In this document: piece by piece, positions 179 through 50,922 of the stretch | How positions within the stretch are numbered: position 1 is the first letter of the stretch | How the letters are laid out: the number at the start of each line of letters is the position of its first letter | Program-made: the position numbers and the translations under genes | Notes under the pieces: generated by a model | The model's input: the letters and a program-made list of their open reading frames with translations, nothing else | What the model was told of the DNA's origin: nothing | Database searches by the model: none | Origin: a virus | Virus record (IMG/VR): IMGVR_UViG_3300045988_042358 | Coordinates: 1-59,894 of that record | Length of the DNA stretch: 59,894 bases | Strand: one strand, 5' to 3'

Positions 179-1309
179 TTATATTACTTTGAGTGCTTCT
201 GCTACTCTGTCCATTTCTAAGTTCTTTTGCTCGTCTGTCGTGTGAACGTAAAGGTTCATTGTGATACCTATGTTCGAGTGTCCTAGTATCGTCTGCAAGG
301 TTTTGGGCGTCATACCGGCTTCAATACATCTTGTTGCGAATGTGTGTCTTAATACGTGCATTGAAAATCTCGGTATCTTTGCCTTGTCACACGCTTTGTA
401 AATTCCGGTATCATATGTGCTATTTTTCACAGGTGCCCCGGTCTTGCACAAAAACACTCTGTCTCTCCATTGAATGTCAATAAATTTGAATGAAGCATTT
501 TTAGCTTTCTGCAATTTCAATAGCGATACGGCTTCATCGGTGAGTGGAATTGTCCTATATCCCGATTTACTCTTAGGTGGTCCTTCTCGCCATTCGCCTG
601 TTGAATGTCTGTACTCTAAGCTCCTGACAATTTTAATTGTTTTGGCTTTAAAGTCTACATCTTCCCATTTAAGCCCTACAAGCTCGCCTGTCCTTAGTCC
701 GGTCTGCAAGGCAAATCTGTATTGATACTCATATGATGTACCTTTGATAGCTTCGCAGAATTTTTTCTGATTTTCAATCGTCAATGCTTCTTTCTTTGAG
801 GATTCCTTACCGATGTCGGATTTCACCATGCGGTTGCACGGATTTTTGGGGATAATCTCGCTTTGATATGCATAGTCAAGCATGTTGTATAGTGCTATGC
901 GTGTCTGATATATCGTTGCCGTTCTGTAATCCTCGTCAGCCATATTAGTCATTATCTTTTGGCAGTGAAGTGTATTAACCTCTCGCAGTATCTTATTTCC
1001 GATAACAGGCTTTATGTTGCGTTTGTATCTCTCGGTGTAATTCCTTAGCGTGTTCGGTCTTACTGTGCGCTTCTTAACGCTTATCCAATACTCAAACCAT
1101 GCATCAACCAACATGTCAGACGGAAAGTCGGGGTTGCTGTGCTCATCAGTGTACTGCTCATCGGCAAGCCACTTTTTACACTCTTGTAGTTTTGCAAATA
1201 ATTTCTGCACTCGCTTTCCATTCCTCGTTGTGTATCTGCCAACATAGTACTTGTCTTTTCTCTGACTAATGCCTCTGCCTAGTTCTTTGCCTTTCAAGTC
1301 CTTTCCCAT
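179..1309 (-). CDS. int: tyrosine site-specific integrase
   Basis: 376 aa. C-terminal catalytic region HVLRHTFATRCIEAG...LGHSNIGITMNLYVH (R..HxxR..Y pattern). AAGGAG RBS upstream. Confidence 0.95.
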   Translation of the reverse strand: MGKDLKGKELGRGISQRKDKYYVGRYTTRNGKRVQKLFAKLQECKKWLADEQYTDEHSNPDFPSDMLVDAWFEYWISVKKRTVRPNTLRNYTERYKRNIKPVIGNKILREVNTLHCQKIMTNMADEDYRTATIYQTRIALYNMLDYAYQSEIIPKNPCNRMVKSDIGKESSKKEALTIENQKKFCEAIKGTSYEYQYRFALQTGLRTGELVGLKWEDVDFKAKTIKIVRSLEYRHSTGEWREGPPKSKSGYRTIPLTDEAVSLLKLQKAKNASFKFIDIQWRDRVFLCKTGAPVKNSTYDTGIYKACDKAKIPRFSMHVLRHTFATRCIEAGMTPKTLQTILGHSNIGITMNLYVHTTDEQKNLEMDRVAEALKVI

Positions 1310-2221: not shown

Positions 2222-2831
2222 GAATATATTGCCTGATAAATCTATCTGCGTACTGCGGGTGTATCATTGACCTTGCTGTTTTCTTATTATCTGCCCCTGT
2301 TTTTGCATAATGTTCTTTTGTCATTGTTCTTATTGCGTCCTTGCATTCGATAGCGTTATAGCTAATTGGCTCAAAAATAAGATTGTTCTGTGGCTCGCAA
2401 TTCAAAAACCAATACTGTGTAGGCTTTTTAAAGTAATCTCCGCTATCTCTTCTATCTTTATCAATTACCGCTGGAGAATAGCACCAATATCGTCTTAAAA
2501 AATGCTCCTCTGAATAAGGGTTCTCCATTATCAGTTTCAATCCTTTTCTCATGCAAATAATAAACATTTTATTTACCAGGCTATACATATGTAAAACTTC
2601 TTCAAGCAAATTCATGTCAAACTCACATTTCTTTTCTAAAGACCATTTTTTCTGACTTGCCGACTGCCCTCTGAACCACAGCATTATCTGATTTTCAAAC
2701 CTTATGCAAGGGAAAAATGCAAATATCAAATCATCAGGGCCTATCTTATCAAATAGACTCGGCTCACCTTGATACCCCCCCCTCAATCTCTGCAAACAAA
2801 TCAATAATATAGTCTGTCTGGTTAAACTCAT
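2172..2831 (-). CDS. C5-cytosine DNA methyltransferase-like protein, C-terminal fragment (out of frame with the N-terminal fragment at the G8 tract)
   Basis: FPC (motif IV-like: FAFFPCIRFEN) and ENP (motif VI-like: KLIMENP). Only the part downstream of 2775 continues the upstream ORF after a 1-nt correction. Confidence 0.5.
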   Translation of the reverse strand: MSLTRQTILLICLQRLRGGYQGEPSLFDKIGPDDLIFAFFPCIRFENQIMLWFRGQSASQKKWSLEKKCEFDMNLLEEVLHMYSLVNKMFIICMRKGLKLIMENPYSEEHFLRRYWCYSPAVIDKDRRDSGDYFKKPTQYWFLNCEPQNNLIFEPISYNAIECKDAIRTMTKEHYAKTGADNKKTARSMIHPQYADRFIRQYILDEKIWRDSNETLQTN

Positions 2832-2919
2832 TCAAAATATCATAGTCATAGGCTTCAATTCCATACTTTTTGAAAGCATTCTTGAATGTGCCTGACTGCT
2901 CAAATAAACAATGTATCAT
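2764..2919 (-). CDS. DNA methyltransferase-like protein, N-terminal fragment
   Basis: MIHCLFEQSGTFKNAFKKYGIEAYDYDI... (AdoMet motif I-like LFxxSG and an acidic motif II-like residue). GGTGGA RBS. The frame stops 9 nt after the G8 tract. Confidence 0.45.
   Translation of the reverse strand: MIHCLFEQSGTFKNAFKKYGIEAYDYDILNEFNQTDYIIDLFAEIEGGVSR
2775..2782. repeat. C8 (coding-strand G8) homopolymer at the frameshift point of the methyltransferase-like gene
   Basis: gataCCCCCCCCtcaa read directly. Seven G would fuse the two ORFs into a 248-aa protein. Confidence 0.95.
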
Positions 2920-2988
2920 CGTTCTAAATCCACCAAAAGGAAACCTCGGTTTTATGTCGCGACAACCTATTCCTTTCTGATAAATTAA

Positions 2989-3144
2989 TTAATGTTTAAT
3001 ATTTTCGCTGCACCACTGCTCTTGTATATCATCATCGGTCTTATCTCGTCCACGGATGTCGTACCACGCAAACGCTGCCTCTGTCAGACCGATTATGCCG
3101 AATACTATGAGGGCAGTGTATACTACTGTTGTTATGTCGGTCAT
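2989..3144 (-). CDS. hypothetical small membrane protein (51 aa, below the ORF-track cutoff)
   Basis: ATGA start/stop overlap with the upstream gene. One hydrophobic helix: VVYTALIVFGIIGLTEAAFAW. Confidence 0.4.
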   Translation of the reverse strand: MTDITTVVYTALIVFGIIGLTEAAFAWYDIRGRDKTDDDIQEQWCSENIKH

Positions 3145-19475: not shown

Positions 19476-19801
19476 AAAAGCGCCATATTAGGCAAAATAC
19501 GCTAGGAGGTAAAAACCTTGAAAGCAATTTTGATTTTGCCTGTTCCATATTTGCGAGGTCGCATTTAAAATGTAGCAATCGGTGTAGCGCATTTTGGGCA
19601 GTAAAGCTCGATAAAAAATCATGGTTGGCATGTCCGATAATATGCCGTGCTACGCTAGATACTCCTCTCAATCCGCCAGCTAATGGCAACTAAAATGCTG
19701 AGCTTAAACTGCATAAGTGGCGGAACATTTAAAGAAGCATTGGTACTACACAGTGCGTCGAAAGACTGCAAAATGTATGTGGTGTAAAAAATAAGGCAAC
19801 G

Positions 19802-19837
19802 GCTGTTGGTGGTAGTACACTAACAGCTTTTGTTTTT
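19802..19837 (+). terminator. putative intrinsic terminator inside the switch region
   Basis: GCTGTT-14 nt loop-AACAGC, followed by TTTTGTTTTT. Confidence 0.5.
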
Positions 19838-21072: not shown

Positions 21073-21378
21073 TTAAAGCACCCCCTCATCCATTAACTGC
21101 CTTGTGTAGTTGTCTATTGCTTCCTCATCAGAGTGCTCGTTAATCTCTTTTGCCTGTTCCATAGCAATAAGATACTGTGAGTATTCATCCTGTGTCAGTT
21201 CACGTTCCTCGTACTCCCAATGCTTAGGCTTGTAAGTAAAATCATCCTCACTCCCTGTTGCTTCAACCGATTTAATGTTTTTTCGCTGATAAACGATATT
21301 CGGAGAAGATGTTGTGTCAATATCAAGCGGTTTGCCCGATTGCATACTTTCTACTAGCTTATATTCTGTCATATTCAA
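21073..21378 (-). CDS. hypothetical acidic protein downstream of the DGR RT (XkdW position)
   Basis: 101-aa ORF that overlaps the RT stop by 20 nt. Acidic, not Avd-like. Confidence 0.5.
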   Translation of the reverse strand: MNMTEYKLVESMQSGKPLDIDTTSSPNIVYQRKNIKSVEATGSEDDFTYKPKHWEYEERELTQDEYSQYLIAMEQAKEINEHSDEEAIDNYTRQLMDEGVL

Positions 21379-22468
21379 TACACCTTGCCTTTCTGTCTAC
21401 TGTTGAAATTTTGCGCTTTAGTTTTCCAAAATCTGCAAATGGTTTGATGTACTCCCTGTAATAATCGTACATATCGCAATTTTTAATCCACGCAAGAGCG
21501 GAAACCATTTGTTTTGAGTCAAATATTGTAACCTTTGTTTTCCGCCATATTCTAACTGCCTTAGCTCTTATTTTCTTAAGGATTGTTTTCCTTAAGGTGG
21601 TTCTATTCCTATAGAATTTATACCCCATAAAATCAAGCGGTCTACCATATGTTGCCGGCTTTTCATTCTTGCTAACATATGGATTTTGGGGCAAATAATG
21701 AAAACGAAATATCTGCCAGTTTGCTTTGACTGTCAAGCCCAATTCCGCAAGACTGTTATCAATCACGGCTTTTACCTTACGCAATTTCTTTTTGCTTGCA
21801 CAAAATATAGCCATATCGTCAACATAGCGTGCATATTTCAGCTCAATGCCGAGTGATTTGATTTCATGGTCAAACTCGCTCAAATACCAGTTTGCAAGCC
21901 ATACAGAGGTATAAAAGCCAAGTGGCAATCCATTAGGCACGCAATGTATAACATTTTCAACAATCTGCATGAATTTAAAATCTTTGATTTTAGATTTAAG
22001 CTTTTCGATTAATTTATCCTGTGGAATACTAGCGTAAAATTGCTTCACATCAAGCTTATAGCAATATTTAATATTTTTACCGCCTTGCCTTATCCATTTG
22101 CATATGTGCTTCTTGCCATACGCTCCGCCACGCTTAGGAACCGAGCCGTAACTGTGCTCATACATTCCTTTGTTAAACATGGGTTTAAGTACGTTCACTA
22201 TCATGTGATGTACTATTGACTCCATAACTGTCGGTATTACTATCTTGCGTTTCTTTCGTGATATTCCGTCATATATTTCTTTGGGCTTATGCTCAAAAGG
22301 TGTGAAGTTAATCGCATATTCTCTAATTTTGGGTATGTATGTATCAAGGTCTGCTAAAATTTTCCTAACCTTATTTCTTCTCTTTTTACCCTTAGAGAAG
22401 TTTTGAATTGCAAGTTTTATATTATCGTCTGAAATAAATTCAGCATATAGATTTCTGTATGTTATCAT
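21359..22468 (-). CDS. DGR reverse transcriptase
   Basis: Start at MITYRNLYAEFISDDNIKLAIQNFSKGKKRR (the ORF is open to 22507). Motifs: KRKIVIPTVMESIVHHM, LDVKQFYASI, GLPLGFYTSVWLANWYL, YARYVDDMAIF. Confidence 0.9.
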   Translation of the reverse strand: MITYRNLYAEFISDDNIKLAIQNFSKGKKRRNKVRKILADLDTYIPKIREYAINFTPFEHKPKEIYDGISRKKRKIVIPTVMESIVHHMIVNVLKPMFNKGMYEHSYGSVPKRGGAYGKKHICKWIRQGGKNIKYCYKLDVKQFYASIPQDKLIEKLKSKIKDFKFMQIVENVIHCVPNGLPLGFYTSVWLANWYLSEFDHEIKSLGIELKYARYVDDMAIFCASKKKLRKVKAVIDNSLAELGLTVKANWQIFRFHYLPQNPYVSKNEKPATYGRPLDFMGYKFYRNRTTLRKTILKKIRAKAVRIWRKTKVTIFDSKQMVSALAWIKNCDMYDYYREYIKPFADFGKLKRKISTVDRKARCIEYDRI

Positions 22469-22601
22469 ACGTATTCTCTTCCTATCCTCTCTACCACGTT
22501 CGACCATATCCTACTACTAGCAGTAGCTTGCATCGAGTTGATTTTTACCAAGGGGTACGGAATTTAGTCTGCATTCATTTTATCCCATGAATGATAGGTA
22601 C

Positions 22602-22709
22602 AGAAGCCCCGATGTTCCACCCCGCATTACCAGCCTCGTTGTTCAAGTTCACGTAGAACGCACCACAATGACGGCCGTCGTGCAGGGGGCCACCGAAAAG
22701 AGCAAAGGC
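22602..22709 (-). repeat. DGR template repeat (TR)
   Basis: Matches 22843..22950 at 101 of 108 positions. Every mismatch is T on the plus strand (A on the coding strand) in this copy. Confidence 0.9.
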
Positions 22710-22768
22710 GCAAACTAAATCCCTTATATAAAATTAACCACACACGTTTATAGTTACAAATTTTCTTA

Positions 22769-22806
22769 GGAGAAACGCGGTTTCTCCCTTTCTGCTTAGG
22801 CAGAAA
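22769..22806 (-). promoter_or_regulatory. two adjacent hairpins just downstream of VR and the target stop codon (DGR retrohoming-enhancing stem-loop and/or terminator)
   Basis: GGAGAAAC-GCG-GTTTCTCC (22769-87) and TTTCTGC-TTAG-GCAGAAA (22789-806). Confidence 0.5.
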
Positions 22807-22827
22807 TTCCCTCTTCCCTGTTGCAAG

Positions 22828-24096
22828 TTATTTGTAGGAAAGAGAAGCCCCGATGTGCCACCCCGCAACACCAGCCCCGTCGCTCAAGTTCACGCAGAAC
22901 GCACCACAATGACGGCCGTCGTGCAGGGGGCCACCGAAAAGAGCAAAGGCTATAATTGCAATATTAAACCAACAGCCATCAGGATAATAGGTCGATGATG
23001 AGCCTGTAATTGATGTTGGAAACATGCCTAATGCCGTGTATAACATATCTTTGATATATCCGCCACTTGTACCACTAGGAGTTGAATTAGGTATCTCGAT
23101 ATATCCTGTTCCATCAGTGTTATAGTTAGTTGCTTTGCTTCCATCCTTTGTTGATGGAGACAGCTTGATTTTCACTATGCCATTAGCAAGGATAAGTCCA
23201 ACTGTTCTTCGCCACTGATTGCCGTAATAATTCTCCATTCCAAATATTTTAACTCCGGCTTTTCCAGCATTTTCGCCCCAAAATAAGCCTTTGCCATTCA
23301 TTGTGCCGGTCTTAAGTAACAAGTTTTCATCACTGGCATTTTCGCTCATGCCTCGACCGAATACATCTTGTGTGTCGGTAGATTTTCCCATGATGATAAG
23401 TAAGATATTAATCAAGAGTCTGTCAACGTACTGCTCGATTTCGTAGCCCGTACCATTAGCTCTTGCATATGTCATTTCTTGGCTGGCTGTTTTCGATTTA
23501 ATAACTGTTTGACCGCTTATTGAGCGTAGCTTATTGTTACTGTCAAGTGAGCCATTATAAATTGGCGTGTAAAAATGAGATTTTTCATTACCATTAATAT
23601 CAATGAAATTCAGATTTTTAAAATCTTTATCAGCTTGGTAGTTGGCAACATAAAGGCTTGCACTGTTTGGATTGCCTTTGTCGGGTTCAATTTTCCACCA
23701 TATAATGTCTGTGCCATTGCCCCATTCCATCATAGCATTTCCATCGTAATCAATGCTTGCTACATCTGACGCACCGCCATCTATTTTTTTAGTCAAGTCA
23801 TTCTCGTTGAGGTAATAGTCAACCTGTCCATTCGTTTTAAGCATACATGGTTTTGGCATAAAAAAGGCATTCGCCCATGAGCCGTAGTCAAAAGTTCCGC
23901 TCGTGAAATTCATCTTTGCCGGAGTCATGCCTACCGCGTCTGCTAAGTATCTGACTCTAGTTTTTGGGTTACTATCCGCGCCATTAATGTGAACACCATA
24001 AATAACTCTTCCCTCGCTTAATTTTGTGCCAAGGGCTTTAATACTCTCAACAATCGCTTGCCCTGTTGTGTCTGATATAATGTCTATTCCGCTCAT
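22828..24096 (-). CDS. DGR target protein: tail receptor-binding protein with a C-terminal C-type-lectin-like variable region
   Basis: The C-terminus ...ALFGGPLHDGRHCGAFCVNLSDGAGVAGWHIGASLSYK is encoded by VR. The gene lies after the tail fibre genes. Confidence 0.85.
   Translation of the reverse strand: MSGIDIISDTTGQAIVESIKALGTKLSEGRVIYGVHINGADSNPKTRVRYLADAVGMTPAKMNFTSGTFDYGSWANAFFMPKPCMLKTNGQVDYYLNENDLTKKIDGGASDVASIDYDGNAMMEWGNGTDIIWWKIEPDKGNPNSASLYVANYQADKDFKNLNFIDINGNEKSHFYTPIYNGSLDSNNKLRSISGQTVIKSKTASQEMTYARANGTGYEIEQYVDRLLINILLIIMGKSTDTQDVFGRGMSENASDENLLLKTGTMNGKGLFWGENAGKAGVKIFGMENYYGNQWRRTVGLILANGIVKIKLSPSTKDGSKATNYNTDGTGYIEIPNSTPSGTSGGYIKDMLYTALGMFPTSITGSSSTYYPDGCWFNIAIIAFALFGGPLHDGRHCGAFCVNLSDGAGVAGWHIGASLSYK
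22843..22950 (-). repeat. DGR variable repeat (VR)
   Basis: Covers the last ~40 codons of the target. Differs from TR at TAC>TGC, AAC>AGC, AAC>GAC, GAG>GGG, AAT>GTT and AAC>CAC. Confidence 0.9.
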
Positions 24097-27754: not shown

Positions 27755-30289
27755 TTAGCCAAATTCATTTGCTACGATATATCGCTGTCCATGCTTTGCT
27801 TTGCCTACCTGTGTCATACGATAGAGCGTTTCACTGTCGCACTTAAACACATTTTCGATGATAGGCGCAGAGTTTCCACCGGCATTAGAGTTCATCATTA
27901 CTTGTGCCATGCCCTCCATGACAGCCTGTTTAATTCCCTCTGTAATCTGTTGATTGTTTGCAACTACATTTCTACCATTTGAGAATTTACCGACTAACTC
28001 ATTGTGATTGATGAAAGCCATGCCGTCCTCTCCCCTTGGGAAAATTCCACCACTAGCAAGCCTTGGAATATGCACTTTCGGGACTAACGATACTCCGTTC
28101 CAATTTGCACCAGCCACCTTAGCAGCCATAGAAACAACTTTGTTAAATCCTCTTAATAAAGAGTTAATTCCGCTAACAACAAAATTAACACCATTCTCTA
28201 TTTTTGAAATAACGTAGTTCATAGCCCCTGTGACACCACCTCTTATTGAACTCCACACATAATTAAACGCGTTTGTAATTCCGTTTTTCATAATATTAAA
28301 GCAGTTTGTGATAGGCGAAATAACATTGCCATTAAACCAACCCGCCACGCTTTGCCAAGTAGATATAACAAAGTTCTTTGCTGTGCTAAGTGCCGATGTT
28401 ATACCAGCTTTCAACATATTAAAAAAGTTTGAAATCGGTTGTATTACTGTACCGCTAAACCAACTTGCCGCCCCTTGCCATGTTGAAAATACAAAATCTT
28501 TTGCTGTCTGTATCGTTGTCTGTATAAACGTTTTTAAAAAATTAAACAGATTTGAAATTGGAGTGATTACATTATTATTGAACCACCCCGAAGCTACTAT
28601 CCAAATTGCTTGAATTATTATCCAAATACCTTGAAAAATCTGTTGTGCTCGTGTAGCAAAGCCTTTAAAAAAGCCAACTATCGGTTCAATTACTGTGGAA
28701 CTAAACCATTTCGAAGCTCCTTGCCACACAGTTACTATGTCTTTCCATAAGGAGCCAAAAAAGCCACTTATGGTTTTCCACATATCTTTAAAAAACGAAA
28801 CTACAGGCTTAATGACATTTCCATTGAACCATTCGCCAACTGTTGAAAATAGTTCACAAATTGCGTTCCAATTATCTTTTACCACAACAACAATCGTTGC
28901 GACTGCTGCCACTATTGCTCCAACAATTACTGCTGGCAATGCTGCCACACCGGCTAATATTGCTCCGATTGTGGCTAATGCAACACCTATTACCATTAAA
29001 ATCTCATTCACCCAGCTAAATCCGTCTTTTAGCATTTTGACAAAATTTACAATAGATAAAATTGTTCCGGCTATTGCCGAAAAAGCAGAACCAATTGTTG
29101 CTAATAGGTCTACTGCCCCTGTTCCGAATGCGGCTGTTATTGCATCACCCAAGCTTAAGCCACTAAATAATCCCTCTATGAGCAATCCAAGATTAGTTGA
29201 CAATGAGGCGAAAATCGTTTTAAATGCTTGCATTATTGCCGTTCCAATGCCAGCTCCTTCCACAAGCTCAAATCCAATTTTTGAAGCTATTGCCTGTGCT
29301 ATTGCTTTTGATAATGATTTTCCAATAAAAGCGAGTGCCACTGAACCCAATTTTAACGAAATTATCTTTTTTATCAGCAATGTGCCAACTATTATCTCAA
29401 CAGTTTTAATGTCTAAATTGCTTAAAAAGTCCGTAATTCCTTTGAGTACGTCTTTCCACGACACATTTTTAATTGCCGTGGTTAGCATGGTGTATATTCC
29501 TTGTACCCATGCGTTAATAGTTTTTGCTAATAACGCAAAATCAAAATTCTCAAAAAATCCATTAATGCCGTTAGCAATCGACAAGCCAAAATTAGTCCAG
29601 TCGAATGTTGTACCGAATGAATTAAGAAAATGTAAAGCTGTGTTCAGCGAACCGGCTATTGTTGCACCCAAATCATAAAAGAGTCTTGGACTGATTAAGC
29701 CGTTAAGGAAATCTGCAAGTCCTTTTCCGAAATTGTCAGCTTTCTGATAAATCTTCTTCCAATCAATGCTCTCCATAGCACTCGCAAGAGCGTCACCGAT
29801 GTACTTTCCGAGTGAGTAAAGGTCCTTGATTGATGATTTGTATTTTTCAAGCAATCCATCGGTCTTTTTCAGTGAGCTATTAACACCGCTGCCGGCTCCG
29901 CCACCACCTGAACCGCCACTGCCTGAACCGCCACCACTGCCACTATCACTGTTATCGTCAAGTGCGTGTATCTCGTCTATGCTAAGTAGTGTCTTTTTCA
30001 GTTTTTGCGCTTTCTTATTGGAACTATCAGCGTTATCGCCAATATCGCCTACTCCGTCAGCTATGTCCTCCATGCCGTCAGCCGTGGCGCCGCGACCGCT
30101 TATCTCGATAGTCCATCCGAAGATTGCTCCGAGTGCGTCAGCTACAGTTCTTGTGAAACTGATAACTTTGAGCATTACCTTATTTAAGGCTTGGACAAAC
30201 GGCTTTAAAGCATTGATTACTACGCTACCTATGATACTGCCCCATGCTTGGAACTCTTGCTTAAGGACTCTTACACTATTCGCCCATGT
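27755..30289 (-). CDS. tail tape measure protein, exon 2
   Basis: Begins TWANSVRVLKQEFQAWGSIIG, which continues the TP901-type core motif broken in exon 1. Gly/Ser linker, hydrophobic segment and ~40-aa W..WF..VI.P repeats. Confidence 0.8.
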   Translation of the reverse strand, partial: TWANSVRVLKQEFQAWGSIIGSVVINALKPFVQALNKVMLKVISFTRTVADALGAIFGWTIEISGRGATADGMEDIADGVGDIGDNADSSNKKAQKLKKTLLSIDEIHALDDNSDSGSGGGSGSGGSGGGGAGSGVNSSLKKTDGLLEKYKSSIKDLYSLGKYIGDALASAMESIDWKKIYQKADNFGKGLADFLNGLISPRLFYDLGATIAGSLNTALHFLNSFGTTFDWTNFGLSIANGINGFFENFDFALLAKTINAWVQGIYTMLTTAIKNVSWKDVLKGITDFLSNLDIKTVEIIVGTLLIKKIISLKLGSVALAFIGKSLSKAIAQAIASKIGFELVEGAGIGTAIMQAFKTIFASLSTNLGLLIEGLFSGLSLGDAITAAFGTGAVDLLATIGSAFSAIAGTILSIVNFVKMLKDGFSWVNEILMVIGVALATIGAILAGVAALPAVIVGAIVAAVATIVVVVKDNWNAICELFSTVGEWFNGNVIKPVVSFFKDMWKTISGFFGSLWKDIVTVWQGASKWFSSTVIEPIVGFFKGFATRAQQIFQGIWIIIQAIWIVASGWFNNNVITPISNLFNFLKTFIQTTIQTAKDFVFSTWQGAASWFSGTVIQPISNFFNMLKAGITSALSTAKNFVISTWQSVAGWFNGNVISPITNCFNIMKNGITNAFNYVWSSIRGGVTGAMNYVISKIENGVNFVVSGINSLLRGFNKVVSMAAKVAGANWNGVSLVPKVHIPRLASGGIFPRGEDGMAFINHNELVGKFSNGRNVVANNQQITEGIKQAVMEGMAQVMMNSNAGGNSAPIIENVFKCDSETLYRMTQVGKAKHGQRYIVANEFG

Positions 30290-30591
30290 CAATTTGTTAT
30301 CGTAAAGGCTTTTTATCCTCTACTTCTTATAGTTTCCTATAAGTTCAGCGTACATTTTCAACCACAAAAATAAGACGCATTTCTACGTCTTATGGTTGTC
30401 GAGCACTCTTGGGAAGATTATATTTATTCACTTCCTACGCGTTACGGTGTCAATCAGCCTTTCGCTATCTGATTGATTACCTCGGTATTGGCTTATTGAT
30501 GTTTAAATCAACTTAGTTTTTCACCGATTTTGCTCGATTTTTCATCAGCACATTACTATGCTGCGCGACACATGAAACTAACGTTTCGTTT
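30290..30591 (-). ncRNA. putative group I intron interrupting the tape measure gene
   Basis: The 5' exon ends in U and the intron ends in G. Intron nt 18-26 (CAUGU-GUCG) pair contiguously with the 3' exon start ACAUG (P10) and the 5' exon end CGAU (P1, G.U at the splice site). The junction is in frame. GAAA-tetraloop hairpin. Confidence 0.6.
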
Positions 30592-31830
30592 ATCGGCTGT
30601 CTTGGCGAAGTCTCCTTGTGCAGCTTGCGTATTTGCCGTGACATAATTGTATCTTAGCAATACCTTTTCAGCTTGCGTCATGGACTTGATATTTGCGTCA
30701 AGTCCGTTTTTCATAGCCCACTCTGAAAGTGTGGCTTGTGTTAAATCAAGTCCGTATCTCCTTAATGGTGCGATTGTTCCCGAAAAAATGGATTGTAAGC
30801 TCTTTGCAACATCAGCTTGGTCTACATCATAAAATGAAGCCATATCGCCAGCTAATCTTGTAAGATTAAGCGACATATCAGCCATACTGTCTGTAGTCTT
30901 GTATAGCGTGTTATTTTGGCTCATAAGAGCTTTATTTGCCACTGCCGTACCATTTGCCACTTGCTCTGATGAAATGCCTATAGAGGTACCTAACGCTTGG
31001 AAACGGCTTGATATTTGCTTAACTGTCAGCTCTGACATTCCGAAGTCTTGAATTGATGTTTTTGTAAAATCATCAACTTTGCTTGCCATGTCACCAAACG
31101 TGGTATCTACTACGTTTTGAACCTCGGTTAGTTGGCTTGCTAAATCAACTGCACTGCCTATTTTTCCTACAGCTCGCATAACCATCCAATAAGTTGCATA
31201 AAACTTACCGATAGTTGAAGCTAAGCCCCTGAATCCACTTCTTGTACTCTTAATTGACTTAGTTGTGTTTGAAAAGCCTGTTATGAGCGACCTACTAGCC
31301 GAACCAACTTTTGCGCCTTGCTGCGACAGATTAGCAAGTGCATTAGTCATTTGAATTATGTTATTGCTGACTCTCGGTGTGTTAGATAATGTTGTCATTA
31401 CCTCTTTCAAGGCGCTGCCAAGGTTTCTTATGTTGTCCGCAGCATAACTAGCTGATTTCGAACCGAGCTTTGAGATTGAAGCTGTTAGCTGTGTAATCTC
31501 TGCTGATTGCTTTGATATATTCGCAAAGCCCGATAATTCTGTTGCCATGCTCTTTAAAGCACTTGCTGAGCTGACAAGCCTTGCGGTATCAAGGTTGCCG
31601 AGCTTCTCCATGTTGGTTGCAATCTTGCTAAAAGTACGAGTGTCAATACTGCTCACACTTCTAAGTGATGTTGCAAGTTGCGACATTCCGCTTGCAAAAT
31701 TGCTTATGCTTGCACCATTGAGGGAATTGAGAGTATCTCCAAGACCTTGCAACTTAGCTTGTAAATTGCCTATGGCTCTAGTCGCTTGCTGTGCGTCCGA
31801 CTTGATTTGAAGCTCAATGCTCTCTGCCAT
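30592..31830 (-). CDS. tail tape measure protein, exon 1
   Basis: MAESIELQIKSDAQQATRAIGNLQ..., TP901-family core. Ends ...AAQGDFAKTAD at the proposed 5' splice site. The ORF reads 11 codons into the intron, to the stop at 30556. Confidence 0.8.
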
Positions 31831-31883: not shown

Positions 31884-32942
31884 TTAACCTTTGAGCAAAT
31901 AGTATGTTGTAATCAATCCAACATAGCCATCTTGCTTAAGACCTCTATTCTTTTGAAATACCATGACACATTTAGTGAGATAGTCGCTCCACTCTTTGTA
32001 ACCAATATCAAGTTTGTAAAAATGATACTTGTCATGCAGAGTTTTTCTCAACCACTTAATGGCTGTCGGGCAGTAATGTTTCTGACCACTCCACAGATTG
32101 TGGTTTTTTGCGAATGCCTGCGAGTTGGCTCCAAATTTACCATCTTCTTTCAGTACATCAGCTCCTTTGAGGTCGAAGCCTACATTCATAGCGTGCTGCC
32201 ATTTTCTTACATCATCATTATCGAGGTAATATTCCTCATTGCCTTTCCAAGCGTTATTCTTTACCGGAGTTGCTGCTGGTGTCGGAGTTGCTATTGGTGC
32301 CGGATTATTCTCTATTCCATCACCCTTGTCAAGCTCAATATAGAGTAAGTTAGCGTCAGTGCTGTTATTCAGACCGCTACAAGTAAATGCGCTCGAATAC
32401 TGCCAACCATACAGTGGATGTTGTATAACAGGCTTCTTTGCGCTATTAGGCTCATCACCAATAGACATTCCCTTAGTTGATGGATAGCGTGCAATCCAAA
32501 ACGGACAATTAATCTGATTTGCGTATGGCGCAATATACTGATTGTAAAAGCTAAGCCCTGTGTATACACCAAAGTTAAGCCCGGCACTCTTGATAACACT
32601 TTGATATGTGTTGATAATATCAATAAGTGTCTGTCCGAGTCCTTGCTGGCACTTATCCTCAACATCTAACCAAACAAAGGTTTTTCTTCCGGCAAGTACC
32701 TCAATCACTCTCTGTGCGTCCGTCTTTGCCTTATCTACTGTTGTAGCGTATGAGTAGTTGTAAACACCTTGTATTGGCATTCCTACATCAGTACAGCCTT
32801 TCCAATTTTGCTCAAAGGTTTTATCCGGATTAAGGTCTTTGCGGATTATTTTAAGGATTGCAAACTGTACTCCAGCCCACTTAACCTTACTCCAATCAAC
32901 ATTTCCTTGATATGACGATACGTCAATTCCTTTATATGCCAT
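31884..32942 (-). CDS. endolysin: GH25 muramidase plus two PG_binding_1-like repeats
   Basis: KGIDVSSYQGNVDWSKVKWAGVQFAILK...FVWLDVED. C-terminal KWQHAMN...EDGKFG and FQKNRGLKQDGYVG. Confidence 0.85.
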   Translation of the reverse strand: MAYKGIDVSSYQGNVDWSKVKWAGVQFAILKIIRKDLNPDKTFEQNWKGCTDVGMPIQGVYNYSYATTVDKAKTDAQRVIEVLAGRKTFVWLDVEDKCQQGLGQTLIDIINTYQSVIKSAGLNFGVYTGLSFYNQYIAPYANQINCPFWIARYPSTKGMSIGDEPNSAKKPVIQHPLYGWQYSSAFTCSGLNNSTDANLLYIELDKGDGIENNPAPIATPTPAATPVKNNAWKGNEEYYLDNDDVRKWQHAMNVGFDLKGADVLKEDGKFGANSQAFAKNHNLWSGQKHYCPTAIKWLRKTLHDKYHFYKLDIGYKEWSDYLTKCVMVFQKNRGLKQDGYVGLITTYYLLKG

Positions 32943-37183: not shown

Positions 37184-38275
37184 TTAATCCTCCTTAACTT
37201 TGAGAACCATAACGCTATCCATACCCTCGAATGTAGGTAATCCAATCATAGATACGATACAGTGAGTATTGATAGGATGATTTGTAGCGTATGTGTATAC
37301 AGATACACCTGTCTCAACAAGTGAGAGGTTTCCGTCTGTGATACTTCCGCTTCTTTCCTCTGGAGTCTTACCAAACGTGTAATCGCCAAGGAATACTCCG
37401 GCAGACTGCGCAGATACAATGCCTGTTGGTACAAAGTACTGTGTCTGTCCTGCCTCATCAACATAGAGCTTATCGTATACCTCAATCTCGATACCATATC
37501 CTCTAAGGTATTCAGTAACCTGTCCTTGCTGTAATCTGATACCGCCGTTGTAAGCAGTGATACCGAGTACCTGCTTCTTTGTGTCCTCTGCCTTAAGCAC
37601 CATTTCCCAAGTCTCTGTATTCATGGTGAAACGAGTAAGTGAGTAGCCTGTAGCCTTTGCAAAGTCTCTACGAGCTGTGATAAGGTCATCAAGTGGTGCA
37701 CATGTGGTAGGCTTATCCCATGCGCTTGTGCCGGTAATTGACTTAAAGTGCTTTTCCTTATGCTCTGCGCCATTGTCGGCTGTGTAATCAACGACGTAGT
37801 TCTTATCGCCAAGTACAACCTTTACCTTTGGCACGCCATCTGTAGGTGCAAGTAACTGCCAAATCTGTCTCTCCGGTACAACTAATGCACCCTCAATTAA
37901 CATCATTGGTTTCTTTGAAATTTCACGTAATACGTTATTGGCAAGACTTGAGTTTTCAGAAGTTCTGTAATTGTCGTACTCCTGTTCCTCTTTCTCTGTT
38001 ACCATATATCCCTCACGATAAAATGGCATTGAGTTCTGAATGTCAGAGAAACCTCCAACATCTCTTAACTCTGCCTGTGCGTCAAAGTTTGAAGCTTTGA
38101 GTGATACCGGCAGTCCGTTCTTACCCTTGATAAATCTAAGGTCGAGTGAGTCCTGTTTACGTGTTCCGAATTTTTGTCTGCCAAGATAAGGGGCAGTTCC
38201 TAATGTCTTTTTGTAGTTATCCCACATTACACCGAGGCTTCTCGCTGTAAATGCTTCTGCTAATGGTAATGCCAT
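37184..38275 (-). CDS. major capsid protein (lambda gpE-like family)
   Basis: 363 aa after the scaffold and decoration-position genes. The N-terminal FTARSLGVMWDNYKK...YLGRQKFGTRK pattern is consistent with Phage_cap_E. Confidence 0.75.
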   Translation of the reverse strand: MALPLAEAFTARSLGVMWDNYKKTLGTAPYLGRQKFGTRKQDSLDLRFIKGKNGLPVSLKASNFDAQAELRDVGGFSDIQNSMPFYREGYMVTEKEEQEYDNYRTSENSSLANNVLREISKKPMMLIEGALVVPERQIWQLLAPTDGVPKVKVVLGDKNYVVDYTADNGAEHKEKHFKSITGTSAWDKPTTCAPLDDLITARRDFAKATGYSLTRFTMNTETWEMVLKAEDTKKQVLGITAYNGGIRLQQGQVTEYLRGYGIEIEVYDKLYVDEAGQTQYFVPTGIVSAQSAGVFLGDYTFGKTPEERSGSITDGNLSLVETGVSVYTYATNHPINTHCIVSMIGLPTFEGMDSVMVLKVKED

Positions 38276-40000: not shown

Positions 40001-41452
40001 TTATTCATCGGCTGTCTTTCCATTGTTCTTATCATTGTTATTATTGTTAGGTGTAGCTGTTGTCGGCTGTTCTTCCGGGAATAACATTTCCATGCGCTTA
40101 GCACTTTCAAGAGTGACTTGTTCAGGGTCACTAAACATGTCAATCGTTTTGACAGCTCTTTTGTAATTGATACCGCACCTAAGTAATATTTCAAGCACCT
40201 CTGCTTTAACAAGCATGTTATCTAGCTTATTATGATTAATGTGTATCTCAACATCGCTAGGCATAAGCGTAAAGCCCTTATTAATTCTCAGCCTGTTAAG
40301 AATAAGCCTAAGTGCCATTCTCTCTGATTTCTTGAGGATAGGCTCATTAATAGCCGTCCTAAGTCCGGCATCATAATGTCCGTTTCGCAGTTCTACAGCC
40401 GAGCCGGTATCACCGCCTGTGTTGCCCTGACGATTTGCAAGGCCTTGAATACTTAAAAATCTTTCAAAAAGGTCAGTAAATACCACCTGTCCCTCTGTCT
40501 GATTAAGTTCGCTCGTCATTACATCAACATCAGCCTTGTTGTCTGAACCATTGTTAGATTTAACTACCAGTGCTCCCTCTTGTCGCATTTTTCTGAATGT
40601 ATCTATGTCAATCTCGCAATTAACGAATTTCACCCATGCAGACACAAACTGCTCGACACCATTAATTCTGTCCGATGTAAGCACGTTGATAGCGTCTGTG
40701 ATTGCAATAGTCATTTCAATATCAGATAATCGTCTTGCATTGTTTGGATATTCAATCACCGGAATTGCTCTATTGCCGTTTGTTCCGCTTGCATAAATCT
40801 TGTCGTTGCGAATATCAAACCACTCATTGTCGGTGAACACATAATAAATATTTGCTCCGTTCTCATCCTCTCCGATTTGACAAGAGAATGCCGGACGTCC
40901 GTTTGAGTAGTATGCTACAAAGGTATACATTGGATTTTCAGACGATAAATAAAAATCACTTTCATCAAGCAACTGTCCTTGTCCATCATCGTTACCGATG
41001 AATCTGTAGCCGGTACCGCATATGCTTCTCCAACGATGTATGTCTATGTCACACTCCTGTTTGCTTTCTGAATCCATTGTAATGTTAAGCTGTGTGATTT
41101 CTTCCGACTTATGGTTATCAGTGCCACGTAGCACGTATTGGATTGGCTCGGCGCACATCTCTGCGGTCTTACGCTCAACAAGCTCATATGCAAGATTTAC
41201 GGCAATCTTGTTATTGATTTCCGGGCGGTTCACTTTCTGCCGGTACAAAATCGGTTGGTCACCACGATAGTATCTGTCAAGATACTCAATCTCAATAGCA
41301 TTTTGCTCGTGAATTACAAGTGCTTTATTCAGTTCTTCGATTATGTTGTTTTTTGTGATTTGCCTTTTACGTGTGAAAATAACTTGTCTGCCGTAATTAT
41401 TTTGGCAAACAGCCGAAAAAGGTCTTACGTTTTTATGAGCATATCTATACAT
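40001..41452 (-). CDS. portal protein (SPP1 gp6-like)
   Basis: Start at MYRYAHK with an ATGA overlap on the upstream stop. EIEYLDRYYRGDQPILYRQK...NNKIAVNLAYELV. Confidence 0.8.
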   Translation of the reverse strand: MYRYAHKNVRPFSAVCQNNYGRQVIFTRKRQITKNNIIEELNKALVIHEQNAIEIEYLDRYYRGDQPILYRQKVNRPEINNKIAVNLAYELVERKTAEMCAEPIQYVLRGTDNHKSEEITQLNITMDSESKQECDIDIHRWRSICGTGYRFIGNDDGQGQLLDESDFYLSSENPMYTFVAYYSNGRPAFSCQIGEDENGANIYYVFTDNEWFDIRNDKIYASGTNGNRAIPVIEYPNNARRLSDIEMTIAITDAINVLTSDRINGVEQFVSAWVKFVNCEIDIDTFRKMRQEGALVVKSNNGSDNKADVDVMTSELNQTEGQVVFTDLFERFLSIQGLANRQGNTGGDTGSAVELRNGHYDAGLRTAINEPILKKSERMALRLILNRLRINKGFTLMPSDVEIHINHNKLDNMLVKAEVLEILLRCGINYKRAVKTIDMFSDPEQVTLESAKRMEMLFPEEQPTTATPNNNNNDKNNGKTADE

Positions 41453-41667
41453 CAATAAAACCTCATGCCACTTGCAGAAGTTCTCTGTGGAACCTCTTTT
41501 ATCTGAAATTCTTGTGTGCCAGCCCAAAACCATATCCATTTACGGCAGTGCGTACACATTACTTTGTGGTGCTTCTTATCATTTTTATTTACCCACGTTA
41601 ATAGCTTTCCGCAACGAGGGCACATTACACTTCGTTTTCCTGTTGGTACAATATTCTGATTATTCAT
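41452..41667 (-). CDS. hypothetical zinc-ribbon protein
   Basis: CPRCG...CTHC. Coupled to the portal start. Confidence 0.5.
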   Translation of the reverse strand: MNNQNIVPTGKRSVMCPRCGKLLTWVNKNDKKHHKVMCTHCRKWIWFWAGTQEFQIKEVPQRTSASGMRFY

Positions 41668-50125: not shown

Positions 50126-50429
50126 ATTTATTACCTGCCTTTCCGATAATAGCCTTATTAACAAAACAACAAACAGGCACTAAGGCTTGTGCTTTTCGGT
50201 AGCTAACCTAGTTTGTTGTAATTGATGTGGTGTGGATTTGAACCACACATGAAATTCCGTTAGTTAGTCTGCACCTACGAATAGGGAAAAATGGATTTTT
50301 ATTTTCTAACGGATTTATTGGTGTAATTGCTTACAGCTTTTTACCATACTTGTTAATAGCAATTCTTATCGCACACCGTTTTCTTAACCATTGATTAACG
50401 TTTACCCATTCCGTCACACATCAACAATC

Positions 50430-50499
50430 GGCAAGGTTGGGAATCGAACCCACGACAAATCAGCTAATAGCTGACTGCTCTACCACTGAGCTACATGCC
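50430..50499 (-). tRNA. tRNA-like element or degenerate tRNA (Asn-like body, AUU at the anticodon position)
   Basis: Canonical D arm GCUCAGUGGUAGAGC and T loop GGGUUCGAUUCCC. Against a functional tRNA: two mismatches in the acceptor stem, one in the T stem, and a palindromic anticodon arm. Confidence 0.4.
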
Positions 50500-50850: not shown

Positions 50851-50922
50851 CAGGGCATGCTGGATTTGAACCAACGAATGCGGGAATCAAAATCCCGTGC
50901 CTTACCGCTTGGCGAATGCCCT
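50851..50922 (-). tRNA. tRNA-Gln (anticodon UUG)
   Basis: A 72-nt cloverleaf folded by hand: acceptor AGGGCAU/AUGCCCU, D arm GCCAAGCGGUAAGGC, anticodon arm CGGGA-UUUUGAU-UCCCG, T arm GUUGG-UUCAAAU-CCAGC, discriminator G. Confidence 0.9.

Follow-up and report, generated by a model that had tools for sequence, protein, structure and literature searches.

[quoted passage not shown] The locus lies in a stretch of 59,894 nt (IMG/VR virus record IMGVR_UViG_3300045988_042358), called the window below; all coordinates refer to it, and the gene and its insert are read on the minus strand. The upstream ORF (31830..30556, 424 aa) runs through ..AAQGDFAKTAD and continues into the intron-encoded residues KRNVSFMCRAA*, and the downstream ORF (30292..27755, 845 aa) starts with L-TWANSVRVLKQEFQ. 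Excision of the 302 nt from 30591 to 30290 gave an in-frame TMP of 1257 aa whose sole stop codon is terminal, with exon 1 at 30592..31830 (413 codons, ending ..GDFAKTAD) and exon 2 at 27755..30289 (844 codons plus stop, starting TWANSVRVL..). Both ORF ends at the proposed break, 30592/30289, and the in-frame joining were thereby confirmed. The junction after excision reads GCCGAU-ACAUGG in RNA and GACAGCCGAU|ACAUGGGCGAAU in DNA, and the peptide spanning it is ..FAKTADTWANSVR... The insert (30290..30591), assigned as a group I intron from the ORF listing, the fold and the pair counts, has stops throughout all three frames and, as had been claimed, no ORF. The last nucleotide of exon 1 is U30592 and that of the insert is G30290, the two boundary hallmarks named in the annotation. 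Because nucleotide 1 of the intron and nucleotide 1 of exon 2 are both A, a +1 shift of both boundaries yields an identical ligated product; only the boundaries used here give U at position -1 together with a terminal G. In unspliced RNA the frame is closed by a stop codon that lies 11 codons into the intron, where translation ends.

The protein evidence for a single gene came from profiles and from uninterrupted homologues. The profile PHROG 1535 (tail length tape measure protein) matched strongly and collinearly across both ORFs, exon 1 covering profile positions 4-356 and exon 2 positions 358-1132. The joined junction, ..GDFAKTAD|TWANSVRVL.., matched uninterrupted homologues residue for residue, and in 12 homologues, retrieved with the region around it as query, the sequence continues through it with no indel. 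Joining the exons restores the protein exactly as it stands in intron-less relatives. The homologue P0001, which is 92% identical and intron-less at the junction, reads ..QQDFSKTANTWANSIRVLKQEFQ.., and P0016, also continuous, reads ..QGDFARTADTWANQTRILK... A 20-base junction pattern, ACNGCNGAYACATGGGCNAA, was found uninterrupted at 211 places among the matches listed (viral and metagenome contigs). In L339 the uninterrupted junction DNA, AAGACAGCCGATACATGGGC, encodes ..GDFAKTADTWANSVRTLKQEFQAWGSII, and the intron-less site reads AAGACAGCCGAT|ACATGGGCG. The earlier claim that joining restores a TP901-type core motif held in part: a TIGR01760 match to the spliced protein does span the junction, and the motif itself is weakly supported, at 17 bits (E 0.0024) under a cut-off of 28.8. 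A Pfam search of the spliced TMP protein gave no match. The two ORFs are one tape measure gene.

The sequence that would select the splice sites was found as the annotation had read it, as a contiguous internal guide, CAUGU-GUCG, at intron nucleotides 18-26. Its GUCG half (intron nt 23-26, 30566..30569) pairs with the exon strand CGAU (30592..30595) in P1, where U30592 is the splice-site U of a U.G pair, and its CAUGU half (nt 18-22, 30570..30574) pairs with ACAUG at the start of exon 2 (30285..30289) in P10. Covariation in P1, P10 and P2 was assessed with seven distinct introns at the same TMP site. P1 is paired in all seven, the U.G pair of U30592 with intron G23 is invariant, and one A-U pair is replaced by G-C where exon CGAU and guide GUCG become exon CGGU and guide GCCG. 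P10 is likewise paired throughout (100%, n = 7) and shows one compensatory change, from C-G to U-A, in L063, where ACAUG/CAUGU has become ACAUA/UAUGU. The guide thus co-varies with both exons. A short P1, with a core of 4 bp, counts against the group I reading. P2 (30546..30563) is a hairpin, CAGCAUA-GUAA-UGUGCUG, with a GNRA loop, 100% paired and with compensatory changes in 6 of 7 pairs; a further hairpin in L1, GAAAC-GUUA-GUUUC (30574..30587), is confined to the lineage of the window intron, L016 and L025. At the other end, the terminal G at 30290 (omega-G) closes a conserved tail, GAUAACAAAUUG, and the same-site relatives all end in ..AAAUG or ..AUUG.

Folding of the insert located the full core from P3 to P9. 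The 5' strand of P3, UCGAGCA (30531..30537), is followed by AAA in J3/4 (30528-30530) and pairs with UGCUCGA (30399..30405); this helix is 97% paired, with compensatory changes in 7/7 pairs. P4, 97.5% paired, is formed by UCGGUG (30522..30527) and UACCGA (30482..30487), and between its strands lies the P5 hairpin (30492..30516), flanked by A-rich J4/5 and J5/4, whose loop is the location of a GIY-YIG gene in relatives. In most members P5 folds into a hairpin whose 3-bp base co-varies; the length of P5 varies and it stands outside the pair count. P6/P6a (30446..30481), GGU-AA-UCAAUCAG...CUGAUUGA-C-ACC, is paired in 88% of cells, and 10 of its 11 pairs are compensatory. The 5' strand of P7, A(C)GCGUA with the C bulged (30436..30442), pairs with UACGCU (30347..30352), just before which J8/7 reads AAAAUG; P7 is 100% paired, its G-C pair is invariant and two of its pairs co-vary. 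P7.1, a hairpin of the form GGAAG-UGAAUAAAUAUAAU-CUUCC (30412..30435; 99% paired, 4/5 pairs compensatory), lies between P7 and P3'. P8 (30359..30398), CAACCA..UAAGACG-UAGAAAU-CGUCUUA..UGGUUG, has a base helix that is 89% paired with 5/6 pairs compensatory, and P9 (30326..30343), CUUAUAG-GAAA-CUAUAAG, is 96-100% paired; these two are the strong hairpins that had been named in the annotation, CUUAUAG-GAAA-CUAUAAG being P9 and the stack of UAAGACG/CGUCUUA on CAACCA/UGGUUG being P8. P9.1 (30302..30323), GUAGAGG-AUAAAAAG-CCUUUAC, is 99% paired, and 5 of its 7 pairs show compensatory changes.

The core pairs were counted in an alignment (A2) of 20 distinct family sequences, with P7 entered as a pseudoknot. 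Pairing was found in 95.3% of the cells, compared with 34-42% when the 3' partners were slid by 1-3 columns, and compensatory changes occurred in 42 of the 55 core pairs, the P3/P7 pseudoknot included; none of 500 shuffles reached any of five core measures. In one row of this alignment (L027) the 5' 60 nt are the end of an endonuclease gene and not P3/P4, so these counts can only be lowered by it. The window copy keeps every core helix intact and all 56 family-invariant nucleotides. The insert as a whole has a minimum free energy of -89.5 kcal/mol against -62.2 +/- 5.2 for shuffled sequences (z = -5.27; 0/100 shuffles as stable). At the guanosine site, the layout of A150, bulged C151 and G152-C244 (intron numbering) is invariant in 20/20 sequences, and by this layout the G-C pair beside the bulged C in P7 is the putative guanosine-binding site. 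The core from P3 to P9, with the P3/P7 pseudoknot, has strong support from covariation. Subgroup IA introns carry P7.1 and P7.2 between P7 and P3'. The window copy has no P7.2; in relatives the loop of P7.1 holds a further, nested hairpin. A reading of the hairpin between P7 and P3' as non-canonical was dropped, as the T4 td sequence, in which we read the order P7 GACUAU, P7.1, P7.2, P3' GAUAGA, P8, P7', places P7.1/P7.2 exactly there. A subgroup IA architecture for the window intron, either IA1 or IA2, is supported by this arrangement.

The intron belongs to a widespread sequence family. By blastn the 302 nt matched 164 records of GenBank phages, 63 of them Streptococcus phages. One match is in Lactobacillus delbrueckii phage JCL1032, in a terminase gene whose annotation is a join; some adjoin HNH endonuclease genes in staphylococcal phages, and three lie inside TMP genes, those of Staphylococcus phage 6ec, Arcanobacterium phage TPWB06 and Clostridium perfringens phage phiCP13O. 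With the whole 4076-nt gene as query only the intron matched GenBank phages at the DNA level, with identities of 82-97% to phages of Staphylococcus, Arcanobacterium and Clostridioides, which is the signature of an element moving independently of its host gene. The conserved 3' motif was found at no fewer than 120 further loci from IMG/VR. The terL intron of JCL1032 was matched by nhmmer at E 2.9e-16 and the TMP intron of the same phage matched the family HMM at E 1.4e-16; the family HMM gave no match in the lysin region of phage 2972, where a link to the S. thermophilus lysin intron was sought. Segments 70-80% identical to the intron core were observed in crAss-like phages, among them NC_055894 cr6_1, NC_055902 cr131_1 and NC_055872 cr118_1, and in the cyanophage PP438436 (Leptolyngbya phage Lbo-JY46), where they adjoin endonuclease genes; with these segments the family spans phages of very distant hosts.

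The first-pass annotation had named the absence of a covariance-model hit among the findings that would speak against its reading, and no such hit was obtained: RF00028 (Intron_gpI) gave no match at the gathering threshold over the whole window or at E <= 10 over 30150-30750, and no other Rfam family matched in 30150-30750. RF00028, with a gathering threshold of 50 bits, is a detection model and not a defining feature, and its behaviour was examined on controls. Of the Twort introns, three that have no ORF were found at 64-101 bits, and the JCL1032 TMP intron was detected with 59.4 bits (E 1.5e-14). The model missed the annotated JCL1032 terL intron and the ORF-containing T4 td intron; since these two are missed as well, the result for the window copy is not decisive. 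The JCL1032 TMP intron matches both the family HMM and RF00028 and so links the intron family to RF00028, and in its alignment to RF00028 the elements stand in the same order as was assigned to the window intron. The model treats the P7 strands as unpaired consensus (..AGACUA.. / ..GAUAUAGUCu..). The window and terL introns have GCGUA/UACGC and GCAUA/UAUGC in P7, compared with GACUA/UAGUC in the relatives that RF00028 detects. The P3/P7 pseudoknot is beyond what a covariance model can represent, and score is therefore likely to be lost when P7 changes by compensatory substitution; we infer that such a change costs RF00028 score on both strands. The miss of the window copy is likely due to its P7, which is scored as plain sequence and has changed on both strands. 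In this comparison, which took in L001, L130, L342 and L352, matches and misses among ORF-less introns tracked the sequence of the P7 strands.

Three states were found at the TMP site of the window. The site is empty in L005 and L339. An intron with a GIY-YIG gene occupies it in L016, L035, L049, L068, L126 and L009; in the first five, which are near-identical phages, the intron is 1204 nt long and has an insert of 902 nt in the P5 loop, encoding a protein of 290 aa with GIY-YIG and NUMOD1 domains, and in L009 a gene for a GIY-YIG protein with NUMOD1 also lies in the P5 loop. The third state, an ORF-less intron of identical 302 nt with intact exons, is that of the window and of L346-L350 (at least five other assemblies), and the exact 424-aa exon-1 ORF is present on 18 contigs. 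No homing endonuclease gene was found in the window copy, the insert having no ORF, and against the endonuclease-carrying form only the contents of the L5 loop are gone, the flanks of the deletion being about 98-99% identical. The comparison identifies the window intron as the ORF-less form of the 1204-nt intron, its homing-endonuclease gene having evidently been lost. With its empty, endonuclease-carrying and ORF-less states, this one site shows the homing cycle in each of its three stages. Samples in which this phage is present at the DNA level include SRR32390182, SRR31508484 and ERZ28662228. The closest intron-less relative at the site (the source of P0001) is L005 (Logan contig SRR32915747_9394, 1-3200). 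Its TMP frame is broken elsewhere, into ORFs 192-1100 and 1097-2311, a gap of 275 nt and ORF 2586-3125; the family HMM found no intron in the gap region, and a frameshift, an assembly error or another element is possible there.

The loss of the endonuclease gene, together with the failure of RF00028 to recognise the window copy, could also be explained by a decayed, splicing-dead remnant that has left the TMP as a pseudogene of a defective prophage. We consider this improbable, as a dead remnant does not account for core helices that are all intact with 56/56 invariant nucleotides kept, for exons that stay open over 413 and 844 codons, for an identical 302-nt intron with intact exons in at least five independent assemblies and the 424-aa exon-1 ORF on 18 contigs, or for a deletion confined to the contents of L5 between flanks about 98-99% identical to the endonuclease form. 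Less probable still is that the TMP is made as two polypeptides from separate genes with the 302 nt as a structured intergenic spacer. GenBank lists two CDS in the homologous cases of 6ec, TPWB06 and phiCP13O, as such an arrangement would have it; however, the conserved motif that the break interrupts runs on unbroken in intron-less homologues, the downstream ORF has neither an ATG or GTG start nor a Shine-Dalgarno sequence, its sole 'start' being a TTG formed by the final three bases of the intron, and the supposed spacer shows group I covariation with a guide that co-varies with both exons. Another kind of insertion, for which the lack of any Rfam match in the region could be cited, is very improbable, since a group II intron would be far larger than 302 nt, the insert is too long for translational bypass by ribosomal hopping, no terminal inverted repeats or target-site duplication point to a MITE or IS remnant, and architecture and homology are those of a group I intron rather than of another ribozyme class.

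Restoration of the protein, covariation in P1/P10 and the core, and homology to the JCL1032 introns all bear out the group I interpretation. The insert is very probably a group I intron of subgroup IA, belonging to a known phage family and lying in a known kind of host gene; with equally high confidence it is placed as a Twort/td-like intron with a single P7.1 hairpin that splits the TMP gene of a temperate siphophage after the codons for ..TAD and before those for TWAN. Catalysis and splicing of the window copy in vivo, which we infer, would proceed by the standard group I pathway. In P1 the internal guide GUCG would pair with CGAU of exon 1 and set a U.G pair at the point of cleavage, and exogenous guanosine, bound at the G-C pair beside the bulged C in P7, would attack after U30592. 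The neighbouring guide CAUGU would hold exon 2 through P10, the terminal G30290 would take the place of the cofactor in P7, and the free 3'-OH of exon 1 would attack after G30290. Ligation to GCCGAU-ACAUGG would then allow one TMP of 1257 aa to be translated.

An intron in a tape measure gene had been called unusual in the annotation, which is wrong because such introns were already published (PMC2504315, PMC6669764, PMC10448857), for JCL1032 in 2004, for Bacillus cereus prophages in 2008 and for ICP1 in 2023. The terminase and TMP introns of JCL1032 were reported to be self-splicing (Riipinen & Alatossava 2004, cited in PMC6669764), and both genes, terL and TMP, are annotated as joins in RefSeq NC_019456. 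Table 3 of PMC2504315 has the JCL1032 TMP intron among BLAST matches. The JCL1032 introns are of the same sequence family as the window intron (nhmmer E about 1e-16) and share with it the helix order P3-P4-P5-P6-P7-P7.1-P3'-P8-P7'-P9-P9.1 and the tail GGAUAAA(A/G)AGCC..GAUAAC..G; one of the two lies in the TMP gene, as in the window. The JCL1032 TMP intron differs in its site, ..LANRG|..GTRAGTGLR, and in its td-like P7, GACUA/UAGUC, with which it is detected by RF00028, whereas the window intron has P7 GCGUA/UACGC and a P2 hairpin and is missed.

In Bacillus cereus-group prophages, introns of types IA1 and IA2 occupy three TMP sites (Tourasse & Kolsto 2008, PMC2504315). The B. cereus introns (IVS1-3) share the class of host gene with the window intron and belong to structural classes IA1/IA2, their related cores are fitted to different TMP sites through changes in P1, as here, and some copies are without an endonuclease gene, like the window copy; the hosts differ. 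No publication of an intron at the GDF..T..|TWAN site was found, the IVS1-3 positions of the B. cereus prophages standing outside this comparison. In Vibrio phage ICP1 splicing of the TMP transcript was shown by RNA-seq and RT-PCR (Barth et al. 2023, PMC10448857), and the TMP is termed there a 'frequently interrupted' gene. The ICP1 gene is likewise interrupted by an intron with or without an endonuclease gene (PMC10448857), but phage and host are unrelated to those of the window, and the likeness noted here is that of the interrupted gene.

Subgroup IA2 includes the introns of Staphylococcus phage Twort orf142 and of T4 td, and the relationship to td is one of architecture and of short shared motifs judged by eye. 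These introns have the IA layout seen in the window, with peripheral helices between P7 and P3'. Elements of sequence are shared with the window intron as well, namely GUAAC-G at J6/7-P7, CUGAAC ahead of a GAAA-looped P9, and ..AACAUAAUUG in the 3' tail. The Twort introns showed weak nhmmer similarity to the window intron (E 6e-4), and the family HMM gave no sequence-level match to T4 td. The window intron differs from Twort and td in having one P7.1 hairpin without P7.2 and a P7 changed at two pairs, and td carries its ORF in P6, whereas the family of the window intron carries it in L5. For the Twort ribozyme a crystal structure exists.

Overall, the window resembles a temperate siphophage or prophage, with a tyrosine integrase (179-1309, minus strand), a major capsid gene (37184-38275) and a portal gene (40001-41539). 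A FuFi-1 RNA (19672-19832, plus strand, 122 bits), an int-alpA RNA (50153-50218, minus strand) and two tRNA genes (50430-50499 and 50851-50922, minus strand) were also located. Directly upstream of the TMP gene, where tail assembly chaperones are usual, there is a GH25 muramidase/endolysin-like ORF (31884-32942, minus strand; PHROG 291, Pfam Glyco_hydro_25), and the relative L006 has an Amidase_3 gene at this position. The window also contains a diversity-generating retroelement (21359-24096, minus strand) with a reverse transcriptase ORF (21359-22507, minus strand; RVT_1, E 7e-22), an Rfam RT-18 RNA within the retroelement region (22478-22557, minus strand), a template repeat (22602-22709) and a variable repeat (22843-22950), the latter inside ORF 22828-24096, in its 3' end. 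Between the repeats, each of 108 nt, 7 positions differ, and at all 7 the template has A. Two scans of representative genomes, the first using the exon-1 protein and the second a 27-nt pattern from the intron, gave no match.

For the annotation of the window, both ORFs should become one tape measure gene. The same joining of CDS is due in the GenBank records of Staphylococcus phage 6ec (NC_024355, L003), Arcanobacterium phage TPWB06 (PQ358086, L002) and Clostridium phage phiCP13O (NC_019506, L004), in which intron-split TMPs are annotated as two CDS. The intron insertion sites in these three phages differ from that of the window; in 6ec an HNH ORF lies inside the TMP intron, and in phiCP13O the split TMP has about 1 kb of extra unannotated sequence. 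The window intron is, on the sequence evidence, genuine but ordinary, its family being already known in phage TMP and terminase genes, and it leaves existing knowledge of group I introns unchanged. It does point to a likely practical blind spot, a branch of phage group I introns with a changed P7 that the covariance model misses. It is possible, though at somewhat less than an even chance, that these form one large sub-clade within the IA introns, marked by a re-paired P7 (GCGUA/UACGC, GCAUA/UAUGC), that is systematically missed and stands unannotated in many phages. Such a clade may occupy several sites in TMP, terminase and other genes of crAss-like, staphylococcal, clostridial and cyanobacterial phages, and appears to have been retargeted by swapping of the P1/P10 guide. 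As a natural case the locus itself illustrates the homing cycle neatly: the site occurs empty, with an endonuclease-carrying intron and with an intron that has none. The ORF-less form at this TMP site may shield the target from the GIY-YIG endonuclease of its co-circulating relatives, and hence persist, and it may be mobilised in trans.
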